A stretch of DNA of 61,891 nt from Candidatus Kaiserbacteria bacterium (GTDB lineage: Bacteria > Patescibacteriota > Minisyncoccia > Phycocordibacterales > UBA918), in NCBI GenBank assembly GCA_031423775.1, contig JANPGF010000057.1, positions 1 to 61,891 on the forward strand. Direction: 5' to 3'. Both the position numbers and the translations under genes were made by a program. The notes under the pieces are model-generated. The model searched no databases. It was not told where the DNA came from and saw nothing but the letters and a program-made list of their open reading frames with translations. Below are positions 25,787 to 56,804 of this stretch, piece by piece (within the stretch, counting starts at the first letter, position 1; each line of letters starts with the position of its first letter).

Positions 25787-27847
25787 ATGCATAAAAGCTT
25801 TTATCGACCTGACATCGATGGTTTGCGCGCCATCGCAATAATCGCTGTTGTACTTTTCCATGCAAAATTGTTTGGTTTTTCAGGTGGGTTTGTTGGTGTT
25901 GACATTTTCTTTGTTATTTCTGGTTTTTTAATTACTTCCATTTTACAACGTGAACTCGAATTAGGAACTTTTTCATTTTTGCAGTTTTGGGCACGTCGAA
26001 TAAGGCGGATTTTCCCGGCACTTATAACGGTAATACTTGCAACGTTTGTTGTTGCAAATTTGTTTCTATTATTCCCTCAAGATTTTCTAAATTTTGGCAG
26101 ATCTTTACTTTTACAGAGTCTGTTTCTATCGAACTTATTTTTTTTACAACAACAAGGTTATTTTGCTGGACCAGCTGAAACATCCCCGTTATTACATACC
26201 TGGACACTCTCAGTTGAAGAACAGTTCTATATTATTTTGCCCTTCCTTTTATATTATGTACGGAAAATTTTTAAAAAAAGAGTACCTCTAGTGTTATGTT
26301 TGATAGGCATAGTTTCATTTGCAGTCAACATATATTTGGTACATTTTGCGCCAGGAAATAACTTTGCAGTACCATTTATACCAAATATTTGGGGTGGAGC
26401 AATTAACAGTACGGCCGCCTTTTTTTTGTTACCATCTCGGATTTGGGAATTTATGATTGGAGCTCTCATTACTCAGTTGCCAACAGTAATCAATATTTCA
26501 AAAAGAGTAATTGAAATACTGAGTGTAGTGGGTGTACTAGCGATTGGGTATGCAGTGACTCAGTTTAATAGTGGAACACTATTCCCTGGAGTGAATGCTT
26601 TACTCCCAGTGCTGGGTGCTGCTGCAATTATTATAGCGGGTACATATCGGGTGACGTTTGTAAGTAAAGTACTTTCTTTACCAGCGTTTGTTTGGGTTGG
26701 GCTGATTTCATATCCGCTCTATTTATGGCATTGGCCAACTTTAGTATTTGCTCGAATCATATTTGGTTCCTTGTCTACAATACAGCTCATTCTCCTGGTG
26801 GCGATTTCAGTTGGTATGGCATGGTTAACCTATAAGTATATCGAGGCGCCTTTTCGTGAGAAAAGATTTCTTTCTGGATCTGTACAGATACTAGTTGCAG
26901 GTTTTTGTTGCTTGTTAGTGATGGGGATGTCCGGGTATATGATTAGATTTAGTGATGTTTCTTCTCGGGTGCCAGATTATGCGATTGATTTTAGTGGTCT
27001 AGCTTTAAAACAAGGTCCTCGGTATATAGAGTGTAATCGGACAAAAACATCCACAACTATTCTGCGAGACGGTCCGTGTTTATTGGGTAGTGAAAATAGT
27101 GAGGTCTCGTTTGTTCTGTGGGGAGACAGTCATGCCGGCGCTATACTAGATACGGTTGACACTTTAGCTAAACAAAATCATGTGAGAGGCGCTGCTTTTA
27201 ATAGCGGTGATTGTATACCAATAATTGGTGTCTCACGATTTCCTGTTCGGGATGAGTGTCAGGCAATCAAGCAGCAGGCACTATCGTATATTCAAAAGCA
27301 TGATATCAAACATGTATTTCTCGTTGCGCGGTGGAATTCATATGTAGGAGAGGGTTCTACTGGGCCTATTATAGATATCTATTCGCCTGGTGTTTCAATG
27401 GCAGACTCTGAGAGAGTATTTACCGATCGCTTTGATGATATGTTACGCACTTGGACTGAGGATGGTCGTGCTATTACAATTTTAAAACAAGTGCCCGAGT
27501 TTTCACATTTTAATCAGCGTGATGCCTTTTATCAGTCAGTGAGAGATAAAATAGCTGTACCTATTTCCAATCAACCGTTTCATGACCATGAAAAGTACGC
27601 AGCATTTACCGATAAAATATTTTCTCAATTTGCCCAGCGATATAACGTGTCAATTATTGATCCGGCTGAAACTTTTTGTACAATTGTAAGTGGATGTAGA
27701 TTCTACACAGATACTACTATTCTTTATGAAGATGATAATCATCTTAATTTTACAGGTGCAAACCTGTTGGCTCCTCAGTTGCAAAGTTTCTTTGATTCGG
27801 TAAGTATAGAATCGAGTTCCTCGCCTAAACTTATTAAGTCAGTATAG
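25787..27847 (+). CDS. Acyltransferase family 3 (OafA/OatA-like) membrane protein with C-terminal SGNH domain
   Basis: RPDIDGLRAIAIIAVVLFH start, about 10-11 TM helices, and a C-terminal FVLWGDSHAG (SGNH block I). Confidence 0.85.
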   Translation: MHKSFYRPDIDGLRAIAIIAVVLFHAKLFGFSGGFVGVDIFFVISGFLITSILQRELELGTFSFLQFWARRIRRIFPALITVILATFVVANLFLLFPQDFLNFGRSLLLQSLFLSNLFFLQQQGYFAGPAETSPLLHTWTLSVEEQFYIILPFLLYYVRKIFKKRVPLVLCLIGIVSFAVNIYLVHFAPGNNFAVPFIPNIWGGAINSTAAFFLLPSRIWEFMIGALITQLPTVINISKRVIEILSVVGVLAIGYAVTQFNSGTLFPGVNALLPVLGAAAIIIAGTYRVTFVSKVLSLPAFVWVGLISYPLYLWHWPTLVFARIIFGSLSTIQLILLVAISVGMAWLTYKYIEAPFREKRFLSGSVQILVAGFCCLLVMGMSGYMIRFSDVSSRVPDYAIDFSGLALKQGPRYIECNRTKTSTTILRDGPCLLGSENSEVSFVLWGDSHAGAILDTVDTLAKQNHVRGAAFNSGDCIPIIGVSRFPVRDECQAIKQQALSYIQKHDIKHVFLVARWNSYVGEGSTGPIIDIYSPGVSMADSERVFTDRFDDMLRTWTEDGRAITILKQVPEFSHFNQRDAFYQSVRDKIAVPISNQPFHDHEKYAAFTDKIFSQFAQRYNVSIIDPAETFCTIVSGCRFYTDTTILYEDDNHLNFTGANLLAPQLQSFFDSVSIESSSSPKLIKSV

Positions 27848-28516: not shown

Positions 28517-29490
28517 ACAAGGAATTAATTACACAAAAACTTGCAGACGTTACTTCTCTCCGTATCGGGGTAATTGGTGATTTAATGCTCGACACGTACA
28601 CCTATGGCCGAGTTGATCGTATTTCCCCTGAAGCACCGATTCCGATTTTGCAGATTGAAAGTGAAATGGCTGTACTCGGTGGAGCGGGAAATGTGTATGC
28701 TAATTTAGTTACGCTAGGAGTGAATACCATTATGATGGGTTCTGTAGGAGCTGACACATTAGGAATTAAACTTATCGATTTGCTTCTGACTGACACTGCT
28801 AAGGCCGTGCCACACCATATTGTGGTCGATCGAAACAAGCCAACCATTAACAAGCAGCGGATTGTTGCGGGGACACAACAGCTCCTCCGCATTGATACCG
28901 AAAATACCGCAACGTTGGATGATGCGCTCACGGATACGCTTATTAGCGGTATCCCAGTATATTTTGCAGGTGTAACCGCTATTTGTGTGGCTGATTATGG
29001 AAAGGGATTTATGACCAAGCGACTCGCTGAAGCGGTCATTTCTTACGGTATGGCCAATCGTATTCCGGTTGTTGTCGATACCAAACCAAAAAATATTGAT
29101 TTTTATCACCACTGCACGCTCATGACGCCAAACGAAGGGGAGCTCATGCAGATGACGGTTTCCGGTACAGTCGCTGAACGCGCACAAGCGCTCGCCCGTG
29201 CGACTGAATCGAATGTGCTCGTGACGCGTGGGGGTAACGGTATGTTATATGCTGACGTGCGGAACGAGTCATCCAATTTCTCACTCCCTAGTTTCGCGAC
29301 TGATGTACGAGATGTTTCCGGTGCGGGGGACACCGTCGTCGCCTTTGCTGTGGTTGGTTTGGCATTGGGGCTTGGTATGGAGGATGCGGTTACTCTCGCA
29401 AATCATGCCGCCGCAGTGTCCGTATCAAAGCCACACACTGCGGTTGTAACTGTGGCTGAGCTGCTCTCGAAACTTTCGGCGGCTGAATAA
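28513..29490 (+). CDS. hldA: D-glycero-beta-D-manno-heptose-7-phosphate kinase (RfaE domain I, PfkB family), stand-alone
   Basis: VGDLMLDTYTYGRVDRISPEAPIPIL and DVSGAGDTVVA. There is a 4-nt ATGA overlap with gmhA. Confidence 0.8.
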   Translation: MNKELITQKLADVTSLRIGVIGDLMLDTYTYGRVDRISPEAPIPILQIESEMAVLGGAGNVYANLVTLGVNTIMMGSVGADTLGIKLIDLLLTDTAKAVPHHIVVDRNKPTINKQRIVAGTQQLLRIDTENTATLDDALTDTLISGIPVYFAGVTAICVADYGKGFMTKRLAEAVISYGMANRIPVVVDTKPKNIDFYHHCTLMTPNEGELMQMTVSGTVAERAQALARATESNVLVTRGGNGMLYADVRNESSNFSLPSFATDVRDVSGAGDTVVAFAVVGLALGLGMEDAVTLANHAAAVSVSKPHTAVVTVAELLSKLSAAE

Positions 29491-32833: not shown

Positions 32834-34369
32834 ATGGAAATTCAGTTCGGCAAGCAAAAATTCAATTTTGACGGTCTCTTTACGCTTGAAATGGCTAACA
32901 ATCACCAAGGAAGTGTTGAACATGGCAAAAAAATAATCCAAGAATTTGGTACGGTTGTGAGAGCTGCCGGGGTGCGGGCAGCTTTGAAATTCCAATTTCG
33001 TAACTTGGATACGTTCATCCATCCTGATTTCATCAACAGTACAACGAACAAGCATATCCCTCGTTTTCAGAGTACTCGATTGTCGAAAGAAGATTTTGCT
33101 ACGCTCGTAGCTGAAGTAAAAAAGGAGGGGATGGTCACGATGGCAACACCCTTTGACGAAGCGTCGGTGAAGCTCCATTCTGAACTTGGTATCGAAGTAC
33201 TTAAAATTGCGAGCTGTTCGGCTAAAGATTGGCCACTCCTCGAAGCGGTAGCATCAGTCGGAAAACCAGTTATTATTTCTACTGGGGGGCTCACGATGAA
33301 AGAGATCGATAACCTCGTTAGTTTCTTTGAACACCGTCTCGTCGATTTTGCCCTGATGCATTGTGTGGCAATTTACCCCACACCAAACGATAAACTTGAA
33401 CTCAATCAAATCGAGTTGATGCGCAAGCGGTATCCAAAAATTACCATTGGATTTTCAACCCATGAGGCACCAGATAATATGGATGCTATATTGATTGCCT
33501 ATGCCAAAGGTGCGCGCATTTTTGAGCGTCATGTGGGTGTCGCTACCGATGATATTAAGCTCAACGCGTATTCATCAACACCAAAGCAAATTACCGATTG
33601 GTTTGCTGCGTACAGTCGAGCAATTCAGATTTGTGGTTCAACCACCGGTCGTGTTATTGATCAGGATGAGCGAAATGATCTCCGCAGTTTGATGCGCGGA
33701 GTCTATGCTAAGCATGATATCGCTGCTGGTGAAGTGTTGGGGGAGGATGATATCTTTTACGCCTTTCCAATTCAAGATGGACAGCTTAGTAGTGGCAGTT
33801 TTAAAGTGGGTTCTACCGCTGACCGAGCGTACAAACACAATGAAGCGATTACTACGCACCTCGTAATGCAGAAATTTACGCCACGTCAGGTCATTTACCA
33901 AGCGATTCATGGTGTAAAGGGAATGTTGAACGAAGCTCATATCGCGACTGGTATAGATGCAACCGTCGAACTCTCACATCATTATGGACTCGAGAATTTC
34001 GATAAGGTGGGAGCGGTGATTGTGGATTGTATCAATCGTGAGTATTGTAAGAAACTAATTATCCAGTTACCTGGCCAGAAACACCCGTATCACTTCCACA
34101 AGAAGAAGGAAGAAGCGTTCCAGGTGCTTTACGGAGAGGTAACGCTTGACCTGGAAGGACGAGAGCGCGTTCTCCATCCTGGTGATGTCGCGATTGTACA
34201 GCGTGGTGTGAATCATGCCTTCTGGACTGAAACGGGGGTTATCTTTGAAGAAATCTCCACGACACATTTTAACGGAGATTCGTACTACGAGGATAAATCG
34301 GTAAACGATATGCCGCGAGAGTCGCGCAAGACCGTTCTCCATAACTGGGGACGTCACCAATTTGATTAA
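32834..34369 (+). CDS. NeuB-family (sialic/ulosonic acid) synthase with SAF domain and extra C-terminal cupin domain
   Basis: FTLEMANNHQGS, VLKIASCSAKDWPLL, VIISTGG and GFSTHE (NeuB TIM barrel). SAF-like AAGEVLGEDDIFYAFP. The last ~150 aa carry PYHFHKKKEE...VNHAF (lyxose/mannose-isomerase-type cupin). Confidence 0.8.
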   Translation: MEIQFGKQKFNFDGLFTLEMANNHQGSVEHGKKIIQEFGTVVRAAGVRAALKFQFRNLDTFIHPDFINSTTNKHIPRFQSTRLSKEDFATLVAEVKKEGMVTMATPFDEASVKLHSELGIEVLKIASCSAKDWPLLEAVASVGKPVIISTGGLTMKEIDNLVSFFEHRLVDFALMHCVAIYPTPNDKLELNQIELMRKRYPKITIGFSTHEAPDNMDAILIAYAKGARIFERHVGVATDDIKLNAYSSTPKQITDWFAAYSRAIQICGSTTGRVIDQDERNDLRSLMRGVYAKHDIAAGEVLGEDDIFYAFPIQDGQLSSGSFKVGSTADRAYKHNEAITTHLVMQKFTPRQVIYQAIHGVKGMLNEAHIATGIDATVELSHHYGLENFDKVGAVIVDCINREYCKKLIIQLPGQKHPYHFHKKKEEAFQVLYGEVTLDLEGRERVLHPGDVAIVQRGVNHAFWTETGVIFEEISTTHFNGDSYYEDKSVNDMPRESRKTVLHNWGRHQFD

Positions 34370-34426: not shown

Positions 34427-36163
34427 TTAGGATTCAAAAACGTCAGAATCTCGGAGGCGGAAGAGCCCTTCGTCAATGCGCCTCTGGTCGAGGTGGTGAC
34501 CGATAAAGCCAACTGAACGGGGAATAACAAATAAGGCGTTCATAAATTCCGTGTCCAAGAGCTCACTGATTTCTGCCGAGGTACATTTTTCGTATTCAAC
34601 GAGGTAATCGAGAAAAACCGCAGCAACCGCCCCATCGATATTAAGAATTAAATTAGATTTTTTCTTGGTGGTTAGTTCTGCAATTGACTGCGCAAAGGTG
34701 CTGTACGTTTTTGCAGTGAGGTCCAGGTCAGCTTGAGCCAAAAGGGCTGCAACTCGAGCGTCAGGTCGGTAGATATTGTATTTGAGATGCCCTATACCCT
34801 GTATGTGCTCACGCTTTTTGCTTGCATTTGCCACCACGTCAGCGGGCGTTAGTTTTGCTTTTACACTCTCATACCATAGTGTGGCCGCATTATTCATAGC
34901 CCCACCAAATCGATCACCAATCGTGAGGATGCCAGTTGCGAGTGAGGATACCATATCTCGGCCGGCCCGGGTGGTGATGATGGTATTTGCAGCCCCTGAA
35001 ACATGAGGTCCATGATCAATTAACTCAACAAAAATAGTGTCGGTTACTCGTACCAGTTCAGGCGACACTGTGCGACCGAGGAGTCGAGCGAGGATATGTT
35101 CAGTAAAGCTTCCTGTAGTTGTGCCGGTCACCTGTTTTGGTGCCGTGATGAGGGTGTGATGAGTATTGGCTGGTCGACCAGTCCAAATACGAGCAGTAGC
35201 GGATGTCGTGATTTTCTTTGGGAGGTGGGCGAGCTGCTCGTTAAAATCGGCAAAGGTGTCGCTGACGATAACCCCAGCGGCCCGGAGGGCGACTGATTTG
35301 GCGTTGGCTGTTTCATCAGGATTTTTTGCGAGGGCTTTGGCGTGACCAAATTGAATAACCTGATCACCTGATTCGTAGCGTCCTGCAATGTAGGCGTAGA
35401 TGGGTTTGGTAATTTCACCGTTTTGTACAGCTGCCGCTAAATCGTATTCATCAGTCCCGCCAAGTTCACCAAAGTATATGATCTGTTCGGTTTGAGGATC
35501 GGCTTCGGCTGCACGAATCCAGTCGAGTGGCGAAGTGATAGGGAAGCGATCTCCGCCATACGCGATGGCAAAACTAATGCCCGCTCCGTGCGCGGTTACC
35601 TGGTACATGATTTCATTTACCATTCCGCCTGAACTACAAATAATTGCAGTGTGGCCTAGTGTGGTGCCGAGCTCTGTCACCCGAGCGCCAGCGATACCGC
35701 CGATTGCTCCTAATTTCAAGAGCCCGGGCACGCACAGTCCAACACCAGACGGCCCTGCAATAAATTTCTGGTTAGATGTGCCATCGCCGTAAGAGCTAAT
35801 CAGTGCGAGCGCATCACGTTCTGCAACATTCTCAGCAAAAATATGGGCACCCAGTGCCTGCGGAAAATGGATAAAGAAGTCAGAGACCATACGGTACGCA
35901 CCGCTTGCAGAGGTAATATTGAGAAGGAAATCAGGCGTGAGACCGAGGAGAACCGCTTCCTCCATACTAGGAATCACCGGAACTAATATTTCTGCGTTAC
36001 CCCAAAATAGCTTTTGGCTTTTTTTGCCAACAGAGATAATGGCAAGAACGCTTGGCGTAACGCGGCCACTTGCATAATCAAAATCGAGGATTGATTGAAC
36101 AATACGTTCATGGTTACCTGCTATCAGAATGGTAGGTGTTTTAGTCCGGAGATTTTTTATCAT
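34427..36163 (-). CDS. aclA: ATP-citrate lyase large subunit (CoA-binding/phosphohistidine domain + citrate-synthase-like domain)
   Basis: [10 protein letters not shown] aligns with ACLY VQFGHAGACA (phosphohistidine loop). [45 protein letters not shown] aligns with ACLY [43 protein letters not shown]. Confidence 0.85.
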   Translation of the reverse strand: [578 protein letters not shown]

Positions 36164-37317
36164 AACAAATTACGTTTAACGATTTCGCCAATAGCAGAGA
36201 GTGGTAGGTCAGGGCCATGTACTTCAGCGGGTATGTTGTGCGTAGCGAAAAATTCACGGAGGAAGTTGAGGGCGACATCTTGGTTCAAACCACCACGTCG
36301 GACGCAGACGGTGATGCCGGCTGTTTGGAGCTCTGGAATTACTTCACTGCATGCGTCCATGATACCTAGGAAGGTTTCTTTGATATCAGTAAAATTTGAT
36401 ACACCGCCAGCAATCAAAATAACTTTTTTTGAAGCGGAAGATGCTAACAGGACACCGAGAAGTGTTCTGACATACGCATAGGTTTCATCGCGCGTTGGGG
36501 CGCCACTATACTCACTGTAGTTGATAATCTCGGATTGAAGTCCAGCCGCAACCAGTGCATCAATAGTTACCAAACTGGCCCCGCCGCCTGAAAGGAGAGT
36601 GAGGACTGCACCATTTGGATTTAATACTTTGAGGTTGAGCGACGCCTGTGACCGTTCGTTCTGTTCAGCCACATCTTGTTCCGGTGGTGTGAGTGTCGAG
36701 GTTATAATGTGATCGGTACACCAGTCAGGTAGCAGGTTTGCTTTAGCCGAGTCACATTCAGCGGCCATGTCGAGCGCTATAAAAGTACCATTCTGTACGA
36801 TAAACGGATTAATTTCCAAAAATGAAATATGAAAACGAGCCATGGTTGCGAGTACTGTCATGAGGTCGACGCCAGGCATCGCCGCGAGAATGTCCGAACT
36901 AGGACTGACACTGTGGGGGACAAGATATGTTTCAACACTCGCTGCATGTTCTTCGATAGCGACGCCGCCTGATTTTGAATGGAGGATAGTTGCACCCGTA
37001 CGTCCAATATCAATACTGAGATACTGTTCTTCAGAATCAGTGTGCGGCTGCATAACTTCGACTATGCAGCGGTTATGTCCCAAGGCAAAAAATGCCTGCG
37101 CGGCAGGTGTGATTTCTGCTTTTGTTAAATTAACTTTGACCAGTCCGGCTAAACCGCGTTTCTTGATACCGGTATCAATTTTGAGAACAAAACGCGCAGT
37201 GTCAGGCAGTGACTCGAGGGCAACCGCAAGGGTGTCTGGGGTGAGGGTGGTGCCTGTATAAACGTCACCAAGCATCAGCTTTTTTGCTGCATATTCAGTT
37301 ATTCGGATTCGTGCCAT
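36160..37317 (-). CDS. aclB: ATP-citrate lyase small subunit (ATP-grasp / CoA-ligase beta-like)
   Basis: LEINPFIV, ASLNLKVLNPNGAVLTLLSGGGASLV, NYSEYSGAP, ILIAGGVSNFTDIKETFLGI and VCVRRGGLN align closely with the N-terminal half of ACLY and with Chlorobium AclB. There is a 4-nt overlap with aclA. Confidence 0.85.
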   Translation of the reverse strand: MARIRITEYAAKKLMLGDVYTGTTLTPDTLAVALESLPDTARFVLKIDTGIKKRGLAGLVKVNLTKAEITPAAQAFFALGHNRCIVEVMQPHTDSEEQYLSIDIGRTGATILHSKSGGVAIEEHAASVETYLVPHSVSPSSDILAAMPGVDLMTVLATMARFHISFLEINPFIVQNGTFIALDMAAECDSAKANLLPDWCTDHIITSTLTPPEQDVAEQNERSQASLNLKVLNPNGAVLTLLSGGGASLVTIDALVAAGLQSEIINYSEYSGAPTRDETYAYVRTLLGVLLASSASKKVILIAGGVSNFTDIKETFLGIMDACSEVIPELQTAGITVCVRRGGLNQDVALNFLREFFATHNIPAEVHGPDLPLSAIGEIVKRNLL

Positions 37318-37438
37318 AGATAAACGTTATTTAATCATACTAACGTGATTTGTGCACATATATTACACTAGTGTCGTGATTTGACCGGCAAGTGAGGTGT
37401 AGTACACTAAAATCTCATTAGATAGTAAAAAACATCCT

Positions 37439-38200
37439 ATGGCATACAAAGATAAACAGGTGTTGGCCATTATTCCAGCGCGTGGTGGATCAAAAGGGAT
37501 TCCCGGGAAAAATATCAAACTGCTCGCGGGGAAACCTTTGATTGCGTGGACGATTGATGTAGCGAAAGCTTCAGGTTTAGTTGATCGAGTGATCGTGTCG
37601 ACTGATGATAAGGAAATCGCTAAAGTAGCTCGGGCGCATGGAGCCGAAGTTCCGTTTATGAGGCCGGTCGAAATTTCGGGTGATCTCGCAACGGATGTAG
37701 AGTTTATTGAACACGCGCTCGATTTTATGGAAGCGACCGAAGGGTACGTGCCAGATATCGTGCTCCGTCTACCACCAACCTCTCCATTGCGTCAGGTCGA
37801 ACATATTGATGCGGGAATTATGACGCTCGTTGATACTGAGGGGGCAGATGCATCACGGCCGATTGCTGAGTCGCCAAAACATCCTTATAAGTTCTGGATG
37901 ATTGACGAAGATGATACCGAGTTCCTCCGCCCGTTTTTAGATACCGAATTTACTGGCTTTGCCGAACCACATAATATGCCGCGGCAACTCTTTCCGAAGG
38001 TGTATATGCATACGGGAGCACTTGATGCCGTATGGGTTAAAACGATTCGTGAACAAAAATCGACGTCCGGTAAAAAACTCGCACACTTTCCGATGGATAT
38101 TGAATCTGCTAGTAATATTGATCATCCGATCGATTTCGTCATTGCAGAAGTGCTCATGAGTGAACGATTAAAGAAACGAGGAGACGAAACAGTAGAGTAA
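37439..38200 (+). CDS. Acylneuraminate (CMP-nonulosonate) cytidylyltransferase family
   Basis: AIIPARGGSKGIPGKNIKLLAGKPLIAWTI and VSTDD are NeuA/CMP-NulO synthetase signatures. Confidence 0.85.
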   Translation: MAYKDKQVLAIIPARGGSKGIPGKNIKLLAGKPLIAWTIDVAKASGLVDRVIVSTDDKEIAKVARAHGAEVPFMRPVEISGDLATDVEFIEHALDFMEATEGYVPDIVLRLPPTSPLRQVEHIDAGIMTLVDTEGADASRPIAESPKHPYKFWMIDEDDTEFLRPFLDTEFTGFAEPHNMPRQLFPKVYMHTGALDAVWVKTIREQKSTSGKKLAHFPMDIESASNIDHPIDFVIAEVLMSERLKKRGDETVE

Positions 38201-40136: not shown

Positions 40137-40203
40137 CGCGTCAGTGTTCGAATGCGAATAATCGTGTTCTTTGACTGAGTAAATCTCGTGAAAGGGGATT
40201 TTG

Positions 40204-47910: not shown

Positions 47911-47998
47911 ACGCTAGCTTTAAACCTATATTGCGCTGCTTTTTCATGGGTGCGTCTAGGTGAAGCTCGCGAGGGGAGTATGGTATATTTGTGACCAT

Positions 47999-50200
47999 AT
48001 GAAAGATATTTTAAAGGGGGCAGTGTTTTTCGGTTTATTTTTAATACCATTACTCACGTTGTATGTCGCAAACGGCATGTTCTTTCCGTACATTACGGGC
48101 AAAAACTTTGTCTTCCGCATTATTGTAGAAATTGTAACAGCAGCGTGGATTTTACTTGCGCTCTACGACGTCGAGTACCGTCCACGTTTTTCATGGATAC
48201 TCGCCACGTTTGCTGCCTTTATGGCGGTGATGTTGGTAGCAAACCTGCGCGCTGAGCATTTTGTAACAGCCTTTTGGAGTAACTTCGAACGTATGGATGG
48301 ATACATCACACTTATTCATGTGTTTATGTATTTCATTGTGCTCGGTAGTACACTCCGCACGCAAAAAGCTTGGACATATTTCTTCCATACTTCGGTAGTA
48401 GTAGCTGGGTTTGTTGCCTTAAATGGTCTCTCTCAATTGTCAGCTGCAAATGTACGTGTCGACAGTACGCTTGGTAATGCGGCATATATGGCTGTGTACA
48501 TGCTCTTCCATATCTTCATCCTCCTGTATTTAGCACTGCAAACAAAAGTAACACCATATCGTATTGTGTATGGTCTACTCGGCGTGCTCTTTGTCTATGT
48601 GCTCTTGCAAACTGGAACGCGAGGAACTGCACTCGGTCTTGTGGCCGGCATGCTTTCAACAGTGGTGTACATTGCACTATTCGCTACGCGCTTTAAGCAA
48701 GTACAAAAGTATGCGTTTGGATCACTAATTGCGCTCCTGATACTACTTGCCGGCTTTATGGCTGCGCGTGATAGTGCTTTTATTCAAAACAATGGTGCGC
48801 TGGCTCGTATTGCTAACATTAGTGTGAGTCATGACTTGGTGACTCGTGGTCAAATTTGGGGAGAGGCGCTGAAGGGTGTGGAGGAGCGTCCAATGCTAGG
48901 CTGGGGTCAAGGTAACTTCAATTACGTATTTAATAAATACTACGACCCACGACTGTATGGACAGGAACAATGGTTTGACCGTACCCATGATATTTTCTTT
49001 GACTGGTTAATTGCTGGCGGTATCTTGGGTCTATTGTCATATCTCTCAATCTTTGCAGCTATTGCATACTACCTGGTTGTACGTCCACTCCGTCGTGCTG
49101 ATGATTCGTTTACCGTAATGGAGCGCGGGGTGTTGCTTGGTTTGATGGTGGGGTATGTGGTGCACAACTTGGTAGTGTTTGATAACATCGTCAGTTACAT
49201 TTTCTTTGGTACCATTATTGCACTTATCCATAGTCGTGTAGCTCGAACGATGCCAAAGGTTGCTCTGTATAAACTACCGGCACCGGTTATTACACAGGTT
49301 GTAACGCCAGTTGTTATTGTACTCGCTGGTCTCTGTGTGTATTTTGTGAACGTACCAAGTATTCAGGCAGCTCAAGACATCATTGTGGCCTTTAGTGATA
49401 CGAATCCAGCATCTCGCTTGAATGATTTTGAAGTGGCACTTGCTCGTGGTTCATTTGCTCGTCAGGAAATTGTCGAGCAGTTTGCTCAGCAAGCTATGAG
49501 CGTAGCAGCAGCACCAAAAGAACAGGTGCCAGAGGCTGTACGAACTGCCTACCTCAAACGCGCTGAAGAGGAAATGCTCAAGATGGTAGCAGAGAAGCCT
49601 GGCGACGCACGCCTCGAAGTGTTCCTTGCGAGTTTCTATCGTTCTATCGGCAACGCACAGAAAGCTGAGGAGTATATGGCAATTGCACGCACACTCTCTC
49701 CAAATAAGCAGGCAATTATATTGCAGCAGGGGGCAATCGCTCTCAGTTTAGGAAAGAATGAAGCGGCGCGTGATTTCTTTAAAAAGGCTTTTGAACTTGA
49801 AACTGCAAATGACGAGGCTCGCGAGTACTACGTCGCAGCACTCTTCTATAACAAGCAGCCTGATGAAGCCAAGAAGCTCATTTCTAATTCGACTCCTGAA
49901 TTCCGTGATCGTATCGCAAAGAGTGACTTCGTAGTGTCGGCTGTTAATGCCGTAGGTGAATTCACGACACTGGCTAGTCTCTACGAAGAACGAGTGGCTG
50001 CTGATAAAACAAATGCACAGAATTGGGCTAGTCTCGCGTTTGTGTACTACCAGTTGAAACAAATTGATAAAGCGGTTGAGACGCTGCAACACGCAGCCTC
50101 AGCTATTACAGCATTTGCACCAACTGCTGATTGTATTAGTAAAAATATCAAAGCTGGCAAGGAACCACAGGCAGGATGTCAGGCGCCTGCAGCACAGTAA
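47999..50200 (+). CDS. O-antigen ligase/polymerase-like (Wzy_C) polytopic membrane protein with C-terminal TPR repeats
   Basis: At least 10 TM helices, LLQTGTRGTALGL loop typical of Wzy_C, and a C-terminal ~250 aa of TPR-like repeats (AEEYMAIARTLSPNK...). Confidence 0.7.
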   Translation: MKDILKGAVFFGLFLIPLLTLYVANGMFFPYITGKNFVFRIIVEIVTAAWILLALYDVEYRPRFSWILATFAAFMAVMLVANLRAEHFVTAFWSNFERMDGYITLIHVFMYFIVLGSTLRTQKAWTYFFHTSVVVAGFVALNGLSQLSAANVRVDSTLGNAAYMAVYMLFHIFILLYLALQTKVTPYRIVYGLLGVLFVYVLLQTGTRGTALGLVAGMLSTVVYIALFATRFKQVQKYAFGSLIALLILLAGFMAARDSAFIQNNGALARIANISVSHDLVTRGQIWGEALKGVEERPMLGWGQGNFNYVFNKYYDPRLYGQEQWFDRTHDIFFDWLIAGGILGLLSYLSIFAAIAYYLVVRPLRRADDSFTVMERGVLLGLMVGYVVHNLVVFDNIVSYIFFGTIIALIHSRVARTMPKVALYKLPAPVITQVVTPVVIVLAGLCVYFVNVPSIQAAQDIIVAFSDTNPASRLNDFEVALARGSFARQEIVEQFAQQAMSVAAAPKEQVPEAVRTAYLKRAEEEMLKMVAEKPGDARLEVFLASFYRSIGNAQKAEEYMAIARTLSPNKQAIILQQGAIALSLGKNEAARDFFKKAFELETANDEAREYYVAALFYNKQPDEAKKLISNSTPEFRDRIAKSDFVVSAVNAVGEFTTLASLYEERVAADKTNAQNWASLAFVYYQLKQIDKAVETLQHAASAITAFAPTADCISKNIKAGKEPQAGCQAPAAQ

Positions 50201-50208
50201 TTTCTGGC

Positions 50209-51231
50209 ATGAGACTATCCGTGTTAGAACAGATACCGCTCACTGACTACACGACGTTCAAAACGGGTGGGCTTGCACGATATTTCTGTACGGTGACAAC
50301 AGTAGCGGAATTGAAAGCGGCAGTTGATTTTGCGCACGCAAAACAACTGCCGTTTTTCGTGCTCGGCTCTGGCTCGAATGTATTGGTGCCAGATGCTGGC
50401 TATGATGGGGTAGTGCTACTGATGGCCATGAAAGGGCGTGAGTTCACTCCAATCCGTGAGTCGATAGTAGAACTTACGTGTGCATCAGGGGAAGTGCTTG
50501 ATGCGGTGATTGCTGATACCGTTGCACGCGGTTTGTGGGGGCTCGAAAATCTATCACATATACCGGGCACCGTTGGGGCAACGCCTGTACAGAATGTAGG
50601 CGCATATGGAGTTGAGGTGGCCGATACGATTGTATCGGTTACAGTGTTTGATACCGTGCGCATGTGTACTGTTGTGCTCGACGCTGCGCAGTGTCAGTTT
50701 GGATATCGTGATTCGATTTTTAAACATGCTGCAGGTGCACGGTTCATTATTACTGAAGTAACGTTTGCGCTCTCACAGGTTCCGCAGCCGCAGCTCTCGT
50801 ACGCCGATCTTGTGACACTTACTCAGCTGGGTGCTCCAACACTCGCTGAAATCCGAGCAACTCTGATTACAGTACGGAGTAGCAAATTTCCTGATTGGGG
50901 AGTGATTGGTACCGCTGGTTCATTTTTTAAAAATCCAACAGTGCCGCGTGAAAGTATCGTCTCCTTAATTGAAACTTTTCCACTTATGCCTGTGTATCCG
51001 GCATCAGATGGTTATGTTAAAGTTTCGCTTGGCTTCATACTCGATAAAATCTGCGGGCTAAAAGGGTATCGACAGGAACTCATCTCGCTATATGAAAAGC
51101 AAGCCCTTGTACTAGTCGCAGATCGCGGTGCAACAACAGCGCAGATCGAAAAATTTGCTGATGATATCACTCGCATTGTTTTTGAAAAAACAAACATTGT
51201 AATTGAACGAGAGGTTACGATGATGAAATAA
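50209..51231 (+). CDS. murB: UDP-N-acetylenolpyruvoylglucosamine reductase
   Basis: LTDYTTFKTGGLARYF, FVLGSGSNVLV, and GYRDSIFK...GSFFKNP. Confidence 0.9.
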   Translation: MRLSVLEQIPLTDYTTFKTGGLARYFCTVTTVAELKAAVDFAHAKQLPFFVLGSGSNVLVPDAGYDGVVLLMAMKGREFTPIRESIVELTCASGEVLDAVIADTVARGLWGLENLSHIPGTVGATPVQNVGAYGVEVADTIVSVTVFDTVRMCTVVLDAAQCQFGYRDSIFKHAAGARFIITEVTFALSQVPQPQLSYADLVTLTQLGAPTLAEIRATLITVRSSKFPDWGVIGTAGSFFKNPTVPRESIVSLIETFPLMPVYPASDGYVKVSLGFILDKICGLKGYRQELISLYEKQALVLVADRGATTAQIEKFADDITRIVFEKTNIVIEREVTMMK

Positions 51232-52206: not shown

Positions 52207-54723
52207 ATGTCATTTTTAGATAGATTTTTTGGTCCAAGTTACGAGAAGGAACTTGCAGCGCTCAAACCTCTGGTTACAGCGATTAATGCTAAAGAAGAAG
52301 AACTAGCCGCCCTTTCAAATGAGGATTTGGTTCAGCGTACCCGAGCATTGCAAACTGCAGTACAGTCAGGAAGTTCGTATGATTCAGTGATTGCAGAAGC
52401 GTTTGCACTCGTGCGTGAATCAAGTAAACGCACACTGGGGCTTCGACCGTACGATGTGCAGTTGATTGGTGGGGCACTCCTCCACAGTGGCAAAATTACC
52501 GAGATGCGAACCGGTGAAGGAAAGACTCTGGTAGGGACATTTCCAGCTTATTTAAATGCGCTTAGCGGCAAGGGGGTACACGTGGTGACCGTGAACGATT
52601 ATCTTGCTCGTCGTGACGGAGTTTGGATGGGGCAAATTTATGCCGCTCTCGGATTGTCGGTTGGTATTATCAATAGTAGCGGTTCCTATCTCTATGACCC
52701 AAATCATCAAGACAAGGATGCTCTTCGTGATGAAGTTGGTTCATTTAAAGTGGTCTATGAATTTTTACGACCTTGTACTCGCAAGGAAGCATATGCAGCA
52801 GATATTACCTACGGTACGAATAGTGAGTATGGATTTGACTACCTTCGAGATAATATCGAATTCGAGGTAATGAATGTGCGCCAGCGTGGACATGCGTTTG
52901 CTATTGTTGACGAAATTGACTCGATTTTAATTGATGAAGCTCGTACACCGCTCATTATTTCTGCTCCTGCTGAAGACTCTGAAAATCTCTATGAACTGTT
53001 TGCCAACATTGCTCGTGGTCTTCGCGTAGAAGAGCATTATACTATTGACGAGAAGCTCAAGAGTGCCACTTTGACCGAGGCTGGTATTGAAGCGGCTGAA
53101 AAAATGCTTGGTATTGAAAACATTTATACTGATAAAGGAATCAAGTATGTACATCATCTTGAAACAGCAGTGCGAGCCAAAGCGCTGTATACCAATGATA
53201 AAGAATACGTTGTCCGTGACAACGAAGTGGTGATTGTAGATGAATTTACAGGCCGTCTCCAACCGGGCCGTCGCTGGTCAGATGGTCTCCATCAAGCGGT
53301 TGAAGCAAAAGAAGGGGTGCTCATTCAGCGTGAATCCCGCACCTATGCATCTATCACGTACCAGAACTATTTCCGTATGTACGATAAATTGGCGGGTATG
53401 ACCGGTACAGGGCTCACTTCACAAGAGGAGTTTTATACCGTGTATAAGCTCGAGGTGGTACCGGTACCAACCCATCGTTCAATTAATCGTGATGATCAGA
53501 ATGATCTTATTTTCCAAAATGAACCGGGTAAGTTCACAGCGATTATTAATCGAGTAAAAGAAATCCACGAAACGGGCCAACCACTTCTGATTGGTACCGC
53601 GTCGATTGAATCGAATGAACGTTTGTCGCATGCTTTGGCTGCGGCTGGTGTACCTCATCAGATGCTGAACGCAAAAAATCACGAACAAGAAGGTGAGATT
53701 ATTGCGGCGGCTGGTAAAAAAGGTGCCGTGACGCTCGCGACAAACATGGCCGGTCGCGGGGTTGATATTAAGCTCGGTGGCCCGACCGCCACTCCGGCTG
53801 AATCGGATGAGGTGCGTGCACTTGGCGGATTGTTCGTGCTTGGTACTGAACGGCATGAAGCTCGTCGTATCGATAACCAGTTACGTGGTCGCGCAGGGCG
53901 CCAGGGTGACCCAGGAGCGACGCAATTCTTCGTTTCGATGGAAGACTCACTTATGCGCGTATTTGGTGGTGAGCGGGTTAAAAATTTAATGGGTACCTTT
54001 GGAATCCCTCCTGATCAGCCAATTGAAATGAAACTCATTTCTCGACAGCTCGAATCAGCCCAGACACGTATCGAAGGTTTCCATTTTGACGCCCGTAAGC
54101 AAGTTCTTGCGTATGATGATGTGCTCAATCAGCAGCGAGTAGCGGTGTATGCGAGGCGAAATCGTCTTCTCACCGGAGATACAACTGAGGTAGCAAAGGT
54201 GCTCAGTGAAGTTCGTGCATCACATGACACTATTGGCGAAGCTATTGATGCAAAAATTGCCGAATTTGGCGAAGAGGTGTTTATGTCATTGTTTCAACGG
54301 CTGGCACTGCAGATGTTCGACTCACTTTGGGTTGAACACCTCGAGGTTATGAATTATACCCGATCGAGTGTGAACTTGCGTGCCTACGGTCAACGTGACC
54401 CTCTTGTGGAGTATCGTTCTGAAGGCACTCGTCTTTTTACTGAGATGCAAGCTGCAGTGTTACAGCGAATCTGCGACATTATCCCACGTCTCCAGCCAGC
54501 GATAGTTGAGCGCGAAGAGGCGGTTCAGCAGAAGCAAGCCGAGGCTGCACTCGAAAGTAGTCTGCAGTCATCAGAACCAAAAGGGAAGGCCGAGCCACGT
54601 GTATCAGCTGATACGCCTAATCGAAATGATATAGTGACAATCTACAGTGGCGAGAATGAACAGCAGATGAAGTACAAAAAAGCCGTACCTTTCTTGGAGA
54701 ATGGTTGGAAGATAAAATCATAG
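52207..54723 (+). CDS. secA: Preprotein translocase ATPase SecA
   Basis: GKITEMRTGEGKTLV, VTVNDYLARRD, AIVDEIDSILIDEARTPLIIS and TNMAGRGVDIKLGG. Confidence 0.97.
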   Translation: MSFLDRFFGPSYEKELAALKPLVTAINAKEEELAALSNEDLVQRTRALQTAVQSGSSYDSVIAEAFALVRESSKRTLGLRPYDVQLIGGALLHSGKITEMRTGEGKTLVGTFPAYLNALSGKGVHVVTVNDYLARRDGVWMGQIYAALGLSVGIINSSGSYLYDPNHQDKDALRDEVGSFKVVYEFLRPCTRKEAYAADITYGTNSEYGFDYLRDNIEFEVMNVRQRGHAFAIVDEIDSILIDEARTPLIISAPAEDSENLYELFANIARGLRVEEHYTIDEKLKSATLTEAGIEAAEKMLGIENIYTDKGIKYVHHLETAVRAKALYTNDKEYVVRDNEVVIVDEFTGRLQPGRRWSDGLHQAVEAKEGVLIQRESRTYASITYQNYFRMYDKLAGMTGTGLTSQEEFYTVYKLEVVPVPTHRSINRDDQNDLIFQNEPGKFTAIINRVKEIHETGQPLLIGTASIESNERLSHALAAAGVPHQMLNAKNHEQEGEIIAAAGKKGAVTLATNMAGRGVDIKLGGPTATPAESDEVRALGGLFVLGTERHEARRIDNQLRGRAGRQGDPGATQFFVSMEDSLMRVFGGERVKNLMGTFGIPPDQPIEMKLISRQLESAQTRIEGFHFDARKQVLAYDDVLNQQRVAVYARRNRLLTGDTTEVAKVLSEVRASHDTIGEAIDAKIAEFGEEVFMSLFQRLALQMFDSLWVEHLEVMNYTRSSVNLRAYGQRDPLVEYRSEGTRLFTEMQAAVLQRICDIIPRLQPAIVEREEAVQQKQAEAALESSLQSSEPKGKAEPRVSADTPNRNDIVTIYSGENEQQMKYKKAVPFLENGWKIKS

Positions 54724-54743
54724 TGCGACAACAGTCGCATGGT

Positions 54744-54773
54744 ACACAAAAGCCCCGCGAGGGGTTTTTGTGT
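54744..54773 (+). terminator. Rho-independent terminator
   Basis: ACACAAAAGCCCC-GCGA-GGGGTTTTTGTGT. Confidence 0.8.
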
Positions 54774-54798
54774 ACGCAGTATGGTAAAATGATACACT

Positions 54799-55131
54799 AT
54801 GAAATTACTTACGAGAGTCGTGGTGGCCGCTTTTGCATTATTGCTCGTTGCCCATTTTATTCCGGGTATTACGATAACGGGTCTGCTTCCTGCACTGCTG
54901 GCTGCAGTTGTTCTTGGGCTTTTGAATGCCCTGGTGCGTCCGATTCTTGTAATTCTCACTCTACCAATTAGTATTCTGACGCTTGGGCTTTTTATCGTTG
55001 TGATAAATGCGGCTCTATTTCAGCTCGCATCAATCTTTGTGGTCGGTTTTTCGGTTGATTCATTTTTAACAGCAGTTATTGGCTCAATCCTCGTGAGTAT
55101 TGTGAGTTCAATTGTGAACCGGATTGTGTAA
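54799..55131 (+). CDS. Phage_holin_4_2 (DUF360/YvlD)-family 4-TM membrane protein
   Basis: LLLVAHFIPGITITGLLPALLAAVVLGLLNALVRPILVILTLPISILTLGLFIVVINAALF is a near-consensus for this family. Confidence 0.8.
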   Translation: MKLLTRVVVAAFALLLVAHFIPGITITGLLPALLAAVVLGLLNALVRPILVILTLPISILTLGLFIVVINAALFQLASIFVVGFSVDSFLTAVIGSILVSIVSSIVNRIV

Positions 55132-55190
55132 TCATAAGGTTGGTAGTGTACTGTGACAGGTGCGAGAGGGGACGGAAGTATGGATATGTT

Positions 55191-55221
55191 GCACCATTGT
55201 CAGCAGACGATGGTGTTTTTT
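55191..55221 (+). terminator. Rho-independent terminator
   Basis: CACCAT / ATGGTG stem followed by T6. Confidence 0.55.
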
Positions 55222-55271
55222 GTGTGTAGGAGAGTAACTCCGCAAGTTCTTTGATTTTAAACATAATTTGT

Positions 55272-55360
55272 AATAGTCGCTATAGCGAGTTGATAAACGG
55301 AGTATCAGGTTTACAACTGCGCGGATAAACTGCCCTAGGACAAGGGGCAGTTTACTTACA
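55272..55360 (+). repeat. Intergenic hairpin repeat unit, copy c (subtype 2)
   Basis: AATAGTCGCTA..GTATCAGGTTTACAACTGCGCGGA-[TAAACTGCCC 55326-55335 / TAGGACAAG / GGGCAGTTTA 55345-55354]. Confidence 0.8.
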
Positions 55361-55468
55361 TCACCACCAGAGTATTTCCGTTTTTATAGTCGCAGGCTCC
55401 TTAAAAACTAGGTCTACCACCAGGGCATTTCCTTTTTTATAGTCGTTCCACTCCTTAAAAACTAGGTC
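55361..55468 (+). repeat. 54-bp tandem repeat, about 2 copies (same family as 5068-5210)
   Basis: TCCTTAAAAACTAGGTC starts at 55398 and 55452, preceded by a partial unit ..CCAGAGTATTTCCGTTTTTATAGTCG. Confidence 0.85.
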
Positions 55469-55598
55469 AAATTCGAAATAGTCGCTACGGGAAATGGTGC
55501 TTGGGTATCAGATTTACAACTGCGTCGATAAATTGCGCTAGGCCAGGGCTCAATTTACGACATAAATTCGAAATAGTCGCTACGCTCGTTTTCTCATT
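55468..55598 (+). repeat. Intergenic hairpin repeat unit, copy d (subtype 1), flanked by AAATTCGAAATAGTCGCTACG direct repeats
   Basis: [TAAATTGCGC 55529-55538 / TAGGCCAGG / GCTCAATTTA 55548-55557, one mismatch]. The flanking 21-mers lie at 55469-55489 and 55565-55585. Confidence 0.8.
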
Positions 55599-55639
55599 TA
55601 GTTTTACTTTAAAAGGGTTCTGTGGTATTACATTAGGTC

Positions 55640-56608
55640 ATGTTTGTTGATCAAATACTTATAACAGCCAAAGCCGGCAATGGTGGAGAGGGGGTGGAGC
55701 GATGGCGTCATGAAAAATTCGTACCAAATGCTGGTCCTTCGGGCGGTAATGGTGGGAATGGTGGTGATATATACGTACAAGCAGTACGTGATTTAGGGTT
55801 GCTCGCAAAATACACCGGCAGTCCAGAATTCGAAGCTGAACCAGGTGAACCTGGGCATAATGACAGTAAACACGGGAAAGGTGGGGTTGACCTAACAATT
55901 TTTGTACCCGTTGGATCGGTGGTTACTGATACAGAACGCGGACGCACCTACGAGTTTTTTACTGAAGGTGTCCGCGAGCGGGTGTTAAAGGGTGGTCAAG
56001 GAGGGTTTGGAAACGAGCACTTCAAGTCTTCAACGAACCGTACCCCAAAGGAAACAACCAAAGGTAAACCTGGTGAGGTAAGTACTCTCAAGATTGAACT
56101 CACTCTCGTGGTTGATGTAGGGCTCATTGGTATGCCCAACGCGGGTAAATCGACTCTCCTCAATGCCTTTACCAATGCACGTAGTCGAGTTGGAGCATAT
56201 CCGTTTACGACCCTCCAGCCGCATCTCGGCGACCTCTTCGGTTTTGTGATAGCTGACATCCCTGGACTCATAGAAGGGGCAGCCGAAGGGAAGGGGCTCG
56301 GACATACGTTCCTCCGTCATGTCACTCGAACTAAAATGTTGCTCCATTTGGTCTCACTTGAGCATGAAGACCCAATAGCTGCGTATTACACCATTCAGAA
56401 TGAACTATCTTCATATCATAAGAGTCTAGTAGAGAAAGAGGAGTGGGTAATTTTTACTAAAAAAGACGTTGCAAATCAAGCTCAATTAGACACAGTGCAA
56501 GACTTTATTGACAAGACCAAGAAACGTGTCTTTGTTATATCTGCAGAAAGTGGAGAAAACATGAAAATGCTTCAAGATTCCCTTGTGCAGTACTTACGAA
56601 ACGCGTAA
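55640..56608 (+). CDS. obg: GTPase Obg/CgtA (short form without C-terminal extension)
   Basis: MFVDQILITAKAGNGGEG...GPSGGNGGNGGDIY glycine-rich Obg fold. G1 is GMPNAGKST and G3 is DIPGLIEGA. Confidence 0.95.
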   Translation: MFVDQILITAKAGNGGEGVERWRHEKFVPNAGPSGGNGGNGGDIYVQAVRDLGLLAKYTGSPEFEAEPGEPGHNDSKHGKGGVDLTIFVPVGSVVTDTERGRTYEFFTEGVRERVLKGGQGGFGNEHFKSSTNRTPKETTKGKPGEVSTLKIELTLVVDVGLIGMPNAGKSTLLNAFTNARSRVGAYPFTTLQPHLGDLFGFVIADIPGLIEGAAEGKGLGHTFLRHVTRTKMLLHLVSLEHEDPIAAYYTIQNELSSYHKSLVEKEEWVIFTKKDVANQAQLDTVQDFIDKTKKRVFVISAESGENMKMLQDSLVQYLRNA

Positions 56609-56650
56609 GATTCTAACATCTGCAGCAACAGTTATGAGTGGCGAGAGGGG

Positions 56651-56688
56651 TGGACCTGTTCCGTGAAACGGGCAGGTCCATTTCTTTT
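56651..56688 (+). terminator. Rho-independent terminator
   Basis: TGGACCTG...CAGGTCCA stem followed by TTTCTTTT. Confidence 0.7.
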
Positions 56689-56804
56689 CAGAAGGGGTTC
56701 GGTGTACCAGAGTGGGTTCGGTAGCGCTCGCTAAAAAATGTAAAGAGGTGTTACTATACTATACAAGGATAAAGATTTAGGAACCAAGTAATTTTAGAAA
56801 ATGT

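Follow-up and report, generated by a model that had tools for sequence, protein, structure and literature searches.

Described ATP-citrate lyases and their relation to the Kaiserbacteria pair

The occurrence of ATP-citrate lyase (ACL) beyond the autotrophs with a reductive tricarboxylic acid (rTCA) cycle and the eukaryotes has already been published for CPR bacteria, with reports of a two-subunit ACL in a Gracilibacterium and of an enrichment of aclAB in Saccharimonadia MAGs (PMC6851277; PMC12577380). This corrects the premise of an initial sequence-only reading of the DNA studied here, which named those autotrophs and eukaryotes as the sources of the enzyme. The Gracilibacterium ACL has been interpreted as scavenging citrate to yield acetyl-CoA and oxaloacetate in a group described as lacking the TCA cycle (PMC6851277). 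A study of the origins of eukaryotic ACL groups it with the enzymes of DPANN and Thermoplasmatota and leaves CPR ACL unmentioned (Nat Ecol Evol 2025).

The gene pair described here lies in the window, by which we mean the whole 62-kb stretch (61,891 nucleotides) of Candidatus Kaiserbacteria DNA that was analyzed. It shares with the Gracilibacterium system the CPR host, the two adjacent subunit genes and the proposed conversion of external citrate to acetyl-CoA and oxaloacetate, whereas the Gracilibacterium enzyme has a GHAGA loop and archaeal affinities, the comparison being with its published description rather than its sequence (PMC6851277). While the CPR reports state that ACL is "rarely detected in CPR" and give no gene neighborhoods, the clade recovered here spans 409 species-level genomes.

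Among solved structures the top scores are those of human ACLY and Methanosaeta (Methanothrix) concilii ACLY-A/B (PDB 6hxh, 6uuz, 6hxi, 6znw), with 309 and 291 bits respectively for the alpha subunit and about 150 bits for the beta subunit; the identity is roughly 40%, as estimated by eye from the alignments. The human match reaches an e-value of 4.5e-91 for AclA and 1e-42 for AclB, and that of M. concilii ACLY-A to AclB 2.7e-43. The domain order is identical, all mapped catalytic and citrate- or CoA-site residues are common to these enzymes and the window pair, and the two-subunit organization is that of M. concilii. The window pair differs in its shorter ATP-grasp, in the shorter linker that joins the CoA-ligase module to the citryl-CoA-lyase (CCL) domain, in a phosphohistidine loop reading FGHAKA instead of FGHAGA, and in having Leu or, elsewhere in the clade, Lys in place of human R976; it also lacks the fusion and regulatory linker of the human protein.

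The heteromeric AclB/AclA of Chlorobium limicola (PDB 6hxj) has the same aclB-aclA order and, as predicted from sequence, the same chemistry, but is far more distant, at 164 bits for the alpha and 92 bits for the beta subunit. Of the likeness to the ACLY halves and to the Chlorobium subunits that had been proposed at first sight, the former is the closer. The Chlorobium enzyme, reportedly described as an rTCA-type ACL by Kanao in 2001, serves autotrophic carbon fixation, whereas the window ACL belongs to a reduced heterotrophic or symbiotic lineage. More remote still are the citryl-CoA synthetase (CCS) and CCL of Hydrogenobacter (PDB 6hxq, 6hxp; 63, 56 and 38 bits), which are built of homologous modules and jointly catalyze the same overall reaction as separate enzymes; the alpha subunit of the window carries the CCL domain as a fusion, like true ACLs.

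An intact two-subunit ACL

The pair is encoded on the minus strand by aclB (36160..37317, 385 aa), the small or beta subunit with ATP-grasp and citrate-binding domains, and aclA (34427..36163, 578 aa), the large or alpha subunit. The coordinates first read from the sequence are exact, and the peptide motifs quoted at that stage are all present in the translations. The two genes share an ATGA stop/start overlap of 4 nt (36160..36163, minus strand; junction TTG TTA TGA / ATG ATA AAA), likewise present in 31 of 77 related loci, which suggests translational coupling of aclB and aclA.

AclA has a CoA-binding/CoA-ligase module, which bears the phosphohistidine loop, and after it a C-terminal citryl-CoA-lyase domain of citrate-synthase homology. 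Its Pfam matches are Ligase_CoA (1.5e-12), Succ_CoA_lig and Citrate_synt (2.2e-16, residues 347-569), and its NCBIfam matches are a SucD-like family and citryl-CoA lyase (81 bits). AclB matches Citrate_bind at 2.8e-44, scoring 151 bits against a Pfam cut-off of 26.8 bits; a shortened ATP-grasp keeps its Citrate_synth_N score, at 74 bits, under the cut-off of 83 bits. On the strength of these domains and of the ACLY matches, all well outside what chance would give, we identify aclBA as genuine, intact genes for a two-subunit ACL in the aclB-aclA order, as had been read from the sequence alone. The matches to solved ACLY also settle the fold and the active site at the level of sequence.

Distribution in Patescibacteria

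A scan recovered relatives of the pair encoded in the 409 species-level genomes, and the best 80 of these 409 are nearly all from Patescibacteria/CPR, which fits the earlier impression of a reduced genome. The pair falls in a large, compact clade, and of 83 related loci about 79 have the two subunit genes side by side. By sequence, then, ACL of this type is common in tiny-genome Patescibacteria. In a neighbor-joining tree of AclA, which is built from simple distances and carries no support values, the relatives at loci L013, L014 and L042 are basal to the clade of the window.

A probably resident gene pair in a variable glycan island

The immediate setting of aclBA is one of surface-glycan genes. 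A NeuB-SAF-cupin fusion resembling ulosonic-acid synthases (32834..34369, plus strand; Pfam NeuB 144 bits, SAF and Cupin_2) is convergent with aclA, and its NCBIfam scores against NeuB (146 bits) and PseI (127 bits) are each far under cut-off. A CMP-sugar cytidylyltransferase (37439..38200, plus strand; Pfam CTP_transf_3, 91.5 bits) is divergent from aclB and scores 137 bits against NCBIfam PseF, for which the cut-off is 206. An OafA/OatA-type O-acyltransferase with AT3 and SGNH domains (25787..27847, plus strand; Pfam SGNH 158 bits, Acyl_transf_3 109 bits) completes the setting first noted, and the Pfam matches agree with the annotation of all three. Downstream, on the plus strand, lie a Wzy_C/O-antigen-ligase-TPR protein and MurB (47960..51231, Pfam), and then a housekeeping backbone of SecA, a holin-like protein of 110 aa, Obg and GatB (52207..58214, Pfam). 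Scans of the window for tRNAs and Rfam families gave no matches. In the 121-bp divergent intergenic region between aclB and the cytidylyltransferase gene, as set by the ORF coordinates (37318..37438), the promoter scan around the pair recovered one plus-strand promoter-like site (37381-37408), with a site count not above that of shuffled sequences, and the terminator scan detected none in the 57-bp convergent gap between aclA and NeuB.

Synteny was surveyed by searching 83 related loci with 22 window proteins (tblastn). Just two of the 83 have NeuB within 10 kb of aclBA, namely L001, the closest relative (87% identity, same lineage), and L042, from a distant genome; a CMP-transferase lies within that distance only at L042. 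Relatives at about 60% identity form a sister clade with the conserved order HTH_23-aclB-aclA-UPF0102-CNNM/CorA-sigma70 among housekeeping genes, such surroundings being present in at least nine of them, and neither NeuB nor a CMP-sugar synthetase is near aclBA in any of the relatives at this identity that were examined. The survey thus rejects a conserved synteny of ACL with NeuB and CMP-sugar genes save at L001 and L042.

The three basal relatives, L013, L014 and L042, have an AT3-SGNH protein, aclB-aclA and then Wzy-MurB-SecA-Obg-GatB. Their Wzy_C-TPR and MurB genes stand zero to two ORFs downstream of aclA in the same order as in the window (53-54% and 47-48% identity). SecA (71-73%), Obg (62-64%) and GatB (57-80%) likewise keep the order of the window, and these relatives share the whole housekeeping backbone, the holin-like gene included. 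The GC content of aclBA (0.48-0.49) is the same as that of the housekeeping genes, against 0.34-0.39 in portions of the island. That aclBA was inserted horizontally among the island genes is not favored, given this composition, a tree that fits vertical descent and the backbone synteny kept with L013, L014 and L042. The gene orders suggest that aclBA is resident and that a variable glycan island has grown up around it. In the order of rearrangement that we infer, aclBA in the clade ancestor would have been flanked by an AT3-SGNH acyltransferase and by Wzy-MurB-SecA and would have bordered such an island, which in the lineage of the window would have expanded on both sides of the pair, with inversion of the latter. 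Judged by gene order, the glycan setting is lineage-specific and bears no mark of a conserved glycan module.

Our favored reading, which we hold to be probable though well short of certain, is that the window carries the genes of a canonical ACL of the heteromeric type, functional and serving the general supply of acetyl-CoA from citrate, its position among glycan genes being a lineage-specific accident of genome architecture. AclB would bind ATP and citrate, and AclA, with H274 as its phosphohistidine, would supply the CoA site and, at its C-terminus, the domain homologous to citrate synthase, so as to catalyze the reaction citrate + ATP + CoA -> acetyl-CoA + oxaloacetate + ADP + Pi. Since the host belongs to the Patescibacteria (CPR), which generally have no TCA cycle, scavenged citrate would most likely yield acetyl-CoA plus oxaloacetate for general use, in a housekeeping supply role and not in carbon fixation. 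Within the 62-kb window we found no citrate transporter, no TCA or rTCA enzyme and no alternative source of acetyl-CoA.

Acyltransferases upstream of aclB

At 35 of 77 loci, the gene immediately upstream of aclB encodes an acyltransferase that depends on acyl-CoA (a GNAT at 32 and an AT3-SGNH protein at three, counted without phylogenetic correction). The GNATs fall into GNAT1, found at 25 loci, on the same strand in 21 and with gaps mostly of -13 to +12 bp, and GNAT2, found at seven. The arrangement GNAT-aclB-aclA is kept in at least six different flanking contexts, across clades of the Paceibacteria type and the Saccharimonadia type. The AT3-SGNH genes of L013 and L014 directly adjoin aclB, that of L042 is on the same strand as aclB with a 5-bp gap, and at L019 and L020 such a gene is at most two genes away from aclBA. 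Loci with glycan or acyltransferase genes close to aclBA are a minority and come from two separate clades (L013, L014, L042, L019, L020). The window, too, retains an AT3-SGNH gene (GC low, at 0.386), about 6.6 kb from aclBA and with heptose, methyltransferase, flippase and NeuB genes in between; its product is 40% identical to the L013 and L014 copies and 30% to that of L042. CPR bacteria are not known to synthesize fatty acids or to run a TCA cycle, which would leave acetylation as the chief sink of their acetyl-CoA.

These patterns point to an alternative that we regard as possible yet distinctly less likely than general supply, in which ACL is an acetyl-donor module coupled to acetyltransferases, here feeding the AT3-SGNH O-acyltransferase for the modification of a surface glycan or of peptidoglycan. 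In its broadest form, which we put forward just as tentatively, the ACL of Patescibacteria would form the center of an acetyl-donor operon that is conserved as GNAT-aclB-aclA or, in the clade of the window, as AT3-SGNH-aclB-aclA, converting host or environmental citrate to acetyl-CoA chiefly for acetylating envelope glycans, peptidoglycan or proteins, with the position in the window as a remnant of that coupling.

Against this, neither the window nor the 60% sister clade has a GNAT upstream of aclB. At the position of the window AT3-SGNH gene, the 87%-identical L001 carries a TylF methyltransferase instead. No aminotransferase or N-acetyltransferase was found in the NeuB module of the window, which therefore has no evident need for acetyl-CoA. 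In Saccharimonadia the GNAT has a TsaE neighbor. Because of that neighbor the GNAT may be RimI-like, in which case its adjacency to aclB could partly be operon packing. Our literature search found nothing on a link of ACL with GNATs or with O-acetylation in bacteria. The dedicated glycan-supply module proposed earlier is thus mostly unsupported, while a broader tie to acyltransferases survives in weaker form: the pair may feed acetylation generally rather than the NeuB pathway in particular. Accordingly, reading the pair as a neutral general supply may understate its link to acetylation, because GNATs are very often directly upstream of aclB and glycan or acyltransferase genes lie near aclBA in two clades.

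Active-site residues and substrate

The other function suggested at the outset was that of an ACL-like enzyme repurposed to activate another carboxylate, for instance to furnish an unusual acyl-CoA for sugar acylation. Several features of the pair might be read in this way: it is compact, with 385 + 578 aa against about 400-425 + 610-630 aa, its ATP-grasp Pfam match is under the gathering score, the window has Leu, and most clade members have Lys, at the position of human R976, and its best score to any characterized ACL is only about 309 bits.

To the contrary, every catalytic and substrate-binding residue mapped from human ACLY, with roles taken from the literature (PMC10115795; PMC11365397), has its equivalent in the window pair, conservation being counted over 77 AclB and 81 AclA homologues. 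In AclB the equivalents of human K58, E118, N203, D216, G281-283, S308, G309, N346, F347, T348 and R379 are present and conserved in 74-77 of the 77; the first four, which belong to the ATP-grasp, are kept despite its 74-bit domain score. The citrate/citryl-phosphate site includes G244-246, S271, G272, N308, T310 and R341 (human G281-283, S308, G309, N346, T348 and R379). In AclA, whose CoA-ligase module was aligned to ACLY residues 499-798, E111 (E599), S178-G180 (S663-G665), H274 (H760), H384 (H900), H459 (H975), D510 (D1026) and R549 (R1065) are each found in all 81, with the phosphohistidine H274 sitting in the motif IQFGHAKA. The length differences from the solved ACLY fall in the linker and in surface deletions, outside the active-site segments. 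On this conservation we reject an altered substrate specificity and consider repurposing very unlikely.

Though ACL serves as the classical rTCA marker enzyme, that the pair should be the citrate-cleaving step of autotrophic carbon fixation, placed here by chance, is the least credible of the alternatives, as its close relatives are all Patescibacteria on small-genome contigs, as neither the window nor the annotated recurrent neighbor clusters of 80 relatives (about 1.4 Mb of flanks) hold a 2-oxoglutarate:ferredoxin oxidoreductase, a fumarate reductase or any other TCA or rTCA enzyme, and as the TCA cycle is said to be absent from CPR bacteria, their ACL being read as citrate scavenging (PMC6851277).

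Significance

As a single finding, one more intact ACL from the CPR is a modest one, and its eye-catching glycan context reflects a local rearrangement. Of wider import is that a compact ACL clade, closest among solved structures to the eukaryote-type ACLY, is widespread in Patescibacteria, its 409 species-level genomes standing against the rarity noted for CPR in 2019. ACL in metagenomes is no safe marker of the rTCA cycle. As predicted from gene content, the ultra-small cells of Patescibacteria probably obtain acetyl-CoA and oxaloacetate from scavenged citrate, and the recurrent GNAT-aclB-aclA operon offers a testable lead on how acetyl-CoA is used in organisms with almost no anabolism.

The aclBA pair as a predicted ATP-citrate lyase

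The two minus-strand ORFs lie exactly where the sequence-only reading had placed them: aclB (36160-37317) codes for the 385-aa small (beta) subunit and aclA (34427-36163) for the 578-aa large (alpha) subunit. Their 4-nt stop/start overlap at 36160-36163 reads ATGA, and all the peptide motifs quoted from them recur in the two translations. The 385-aa product matches the Pfam Citrate_bind domain (151 bits) and, slightly below the gathering score, the ACL ATP-grasp domain (74 bits). The 578-aa product combines Ligase_CoA/Succ_CoA_lig with a C-terminal citrate-synthase domain in Pfam, and a SucD-like part with a citryl-CoA-lyase part in NCBIfam. Together with matches to solved structures, these confirm the identification as ATP-citrate lyase (ACL), with one correction. 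The large subunit has human ACLY as its top match (309 bits, 4.5e-91), followed by Methanosaeta concilii ACLY-B (291 bits), whereas Chlorobium AclA reaches only 164 bits; the small subunit scores ~150 bits against both M. concilii and human but 92 bits against Chlorobium. Judged by these comparisons, the nearest characterised relatives are of the eukaryote/Methanosaeta type, not that of Chlorobium.

Of 1588 homologues from a protein search, one is 87% identical and is followed by a dense cloud at 57-62% identity (574-579 aa); the few named ones carry labels such as Pacebacteria and Nomurabacteria. Scanning one genome per species, we found relatives in 409 genomes; the best 80 of these are almost all Patescibacteria/CPR, with Saccharibacteria, Paceibacterota, Levyibacteriota, Kaiserbacteria and Magasanikbacteria represented. 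A few bins are labelled Gammaproteobacteria or Azotimanducaceae, which we take to be errors because their AclA nests among Patescibacteria in the tree. The presence of ACL in CPR is already known: the two-subunit ACL of a Gracilibacterium, described as "rarely detected in CPR", is predicted to convert external citrate to acetyl-CoA and oxaloacetate (PMC6851277), aclAB is enriched in Saccharimonadia MAGs according to a 2025 study (PMC12577380), and a preprint points out cases of mis-annotated citrate-cleavage enzymes in CPR and DPANN. On sequence grounds, the window pair is predicted to be a bona fide ACL of this Patescibacteria-wide clade, and the supply of acetyl-CoA and oxaloacetate from scavenged citrate is probably the full explanation of its role.

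The glycan island and its relationship to aclBA

The glycan-cluster setting reported for the pair is real: an island of ~40 kb (roughly 9.5-51 kb of the window), with housekeeping genes on its flanks, contains GT4 and GT9 glycosyltransferases, several methyltransferases, an OafA/OatA-type O-acyltransferase (AT3-SGNH; 25787-27847, plus strand), a flippase and a heptose pathway. Adjoining the ACL pair are a NeuB-SAF-cupin fusion, a CMP-sugar cytidylyltransferase, a GFO/IDH/MocA oxidoreductase and a HAD phosphatase, while a TylF methyltransferase, a UDP-glucose-dehydrogenase-like protein, YvcK, a sulfotransferase, Wzy-TPR and MurB lie farther along. Per-gene GC in the island ranges from 0.34 to 0.53, indicating a mosaic, with aclBA (0.48-0.49) similar to core genes.

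Two low-GC blocks (20391-22715 and 25787-27847; 0.34-0.39 against 0.455 overall), which carry a Laminin_G_3 lectin-like protein, FkbM and another methyltransferase, and the AT3-SGNH gene, suggest recent mosaic acquisition. In the locus of the 87%-identical relative (L001), the slot between GmhA and GT9 holds a TylF-type methyltransferase (L001:8433-9077) in place of the AT3-SGNH of the window, a strain-level exchange of glycan-decorating enzymes between O-methylation and O-acylation. The heptose genes (29495-30529, with 27950-28516 and 28513-29490) show an unusual arrangement: GmhA and the HldE-type kinase domain are encoded by individual genes, and one fusion protein joins the HldE adenylyltransferase domain with the GmhB phosphatase. 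A heptosyltransferase of the GT9 family is encoded at 24621-25682. Patescibacteria are commonly regarded as lacking LPS, which makes a heptose-nucleotide pathway notable here. A surface glycan bearing sulfate groups is implied by the sulfotransferase gene (47074-47910), whose neighbours are a GT4 gene and Wzy-TPR. Elsewhere in the window, 5393-6958 encodes a 521-aa fusion of YkuD L,D-transpeptidase and S11 D-Ala-D-Ala carboxypeptidase domains, and 6983-9295 a 770-aa TrwB/TraG-D (VirD4-like) type IV coupling protein homologue, alone amid housekeeping and glycan genes.

The tri-domain NeuB-SAF-cupin protein (32834-34369, 511 aa) falls far under the NeuB and PseI equivalog cut-offs. No aminotransferase or N-acetyltransferase was found in its cluster, which suggests a route to a non-aminated (Kdn- or Kdo-like) ulosonic acid. 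The module thus has no evident demand for acetyl-CoA, which argues against ACL as its dedicated supply. It further includes two large ORFs with no significant Pfam match (40201-41241, 346 aa; 41370-42797, 475 aa). Since a 28%-identical homologue of the latter adjoins NeuB in the related locus L042, it may be a conserved component of the ulosonic-acid pathway, possibly its transferase; a weak Glyphos_transf match (16 bits) is the sole hint toward that role.

The linkage itself is not conserved. Among 83 related loci, each surveyed with flanks of up to 10 kb, NeuB occurs near ACL only in L001, with identical synteny, and L042, and a CMP-transferase only in L042. The relatives of ~60% identity (L002-L012, L084-L086) instead share the order HTH_23 regulator-aclB-aclA-UPF0102-CNNM/CorA-sigma70/DUF5667, with no glycan genes in this conserved context. 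Their HTH_23 protein (~220 aa), conserved one to two ORFs upstream of aclB in L004-L012 and L084-L086, where other loci have a GNAT acetyltransferase, could be a dedicated regulator. In the AclA tree, three genomes (L013, L014 and L042) branch basally to the clade of the window; they have variable glycan genes followed by a flippase and AT3-SGNH, then aclB-aclA, then Wzy-TPR-MurB-SecA-holin-Obg-GatB. The last block is collinear with 47.9-58.2 kb of the window, and its SecA, Obg and GatB share 57-80% identity with their counterparts there, which marks the window itself as Patescibacterial DNA. In the simplest history, aclBA would be a resident pair bordering a glycan hot spot; within the lineage of the window, the island would have expanded on both sides of the pair, which would also have been inverted.

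Acyltransferases upstream of aclB

We clustered all flank ORFs and tallied the upstream neighbour in the 77 loci with both subunits, as raw counts that ignore kinship. In 32 of them, this neighbour of aclB codes for a small GNAT acetyltransferase and lies immediately next to it: GNAT1 (Acetyltransf_1, 55.7 bits) in 25 loci, co-oriented in 21 with gaps mostly of -13 to +12 bp, and GNAT2, above the Acetyltransf_3 and Acetyltransf_1 cut-offs, in seven. AT3-SGNH takes this position in three loci, being co-oriented with a 5-bp gap in one (L042:6886-10007) and divergent with gaps of 100-124 bp in two (L013:6761-10004; L014:6714-10011). In two Saccharimonadia-type loci (L019 and L020), it lies within two genes of aclB.

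The GNAT-aclB-aclA order recurs in six or more distinct flanking contexts, among Paceibacteria-type as well as Saccharimonadia-type clades, the pattern expected of a functionally maintained operon; we found no mention of it in the literature searched. Examples, all outside the window, lie within L016-L083 (for instance, L063:8422-8865 and L045:8253-8843). This persistence supports ACL-derived acetyl-CoA feeding acetyl transfer, and the earlier idea of a supply for acylation gains from it in general form. However, the GNAT is absent from both the window and its sister clade, the counts disregard kinship, and the best NCBIfam matches of the GNAT are far under cut-off, with a TsaE neighbour hinting that it is possibly RimI. 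We regard a specific coupling of ACL to acetyltransferases or glycan O-acylation as rather unlikely.

Conservation of the active site

Functional residues of human ACLY, with roles as described (PMC10115795, PMC11365397), were transferred to the window through residue-numbered alignments, and every one of them is present. In the beta subunit, K58, E118, N203, D216, G281-283, S308/G309, N346/F347/T348 and R379 correspond to K46, E87, N170, D183, G244-246, S271/G272, N308/F309/T310 and R341, kept in 74-77 of 77 aligned homologues. In the alpha subunit, E599, S663-G665, H760, H900, H975, D1026 and R1065 correspond to E111, S178-G180, H274, H384, H459, D510 and R549, kept in all 81. The sole notable substitution affects human R976, which contributes to non-productive CoA binding: the window has Leu there, and most clade members have Lys. 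The smaller size is explained by a truncated ATP-grasp and a shorter linker ahead of the lyase domain, with no active-site segment lost. These observations make it very improbable that the enzyme acts on a changed substrate, such as the other carboxylate for which repurposing had been proposed. A role in carbon fixation through the reductive TCA cycle is scarcely credible.

The significance of the window pair rests mainly on the size of its clade and on the GNAT-aclBA operon as a lead.
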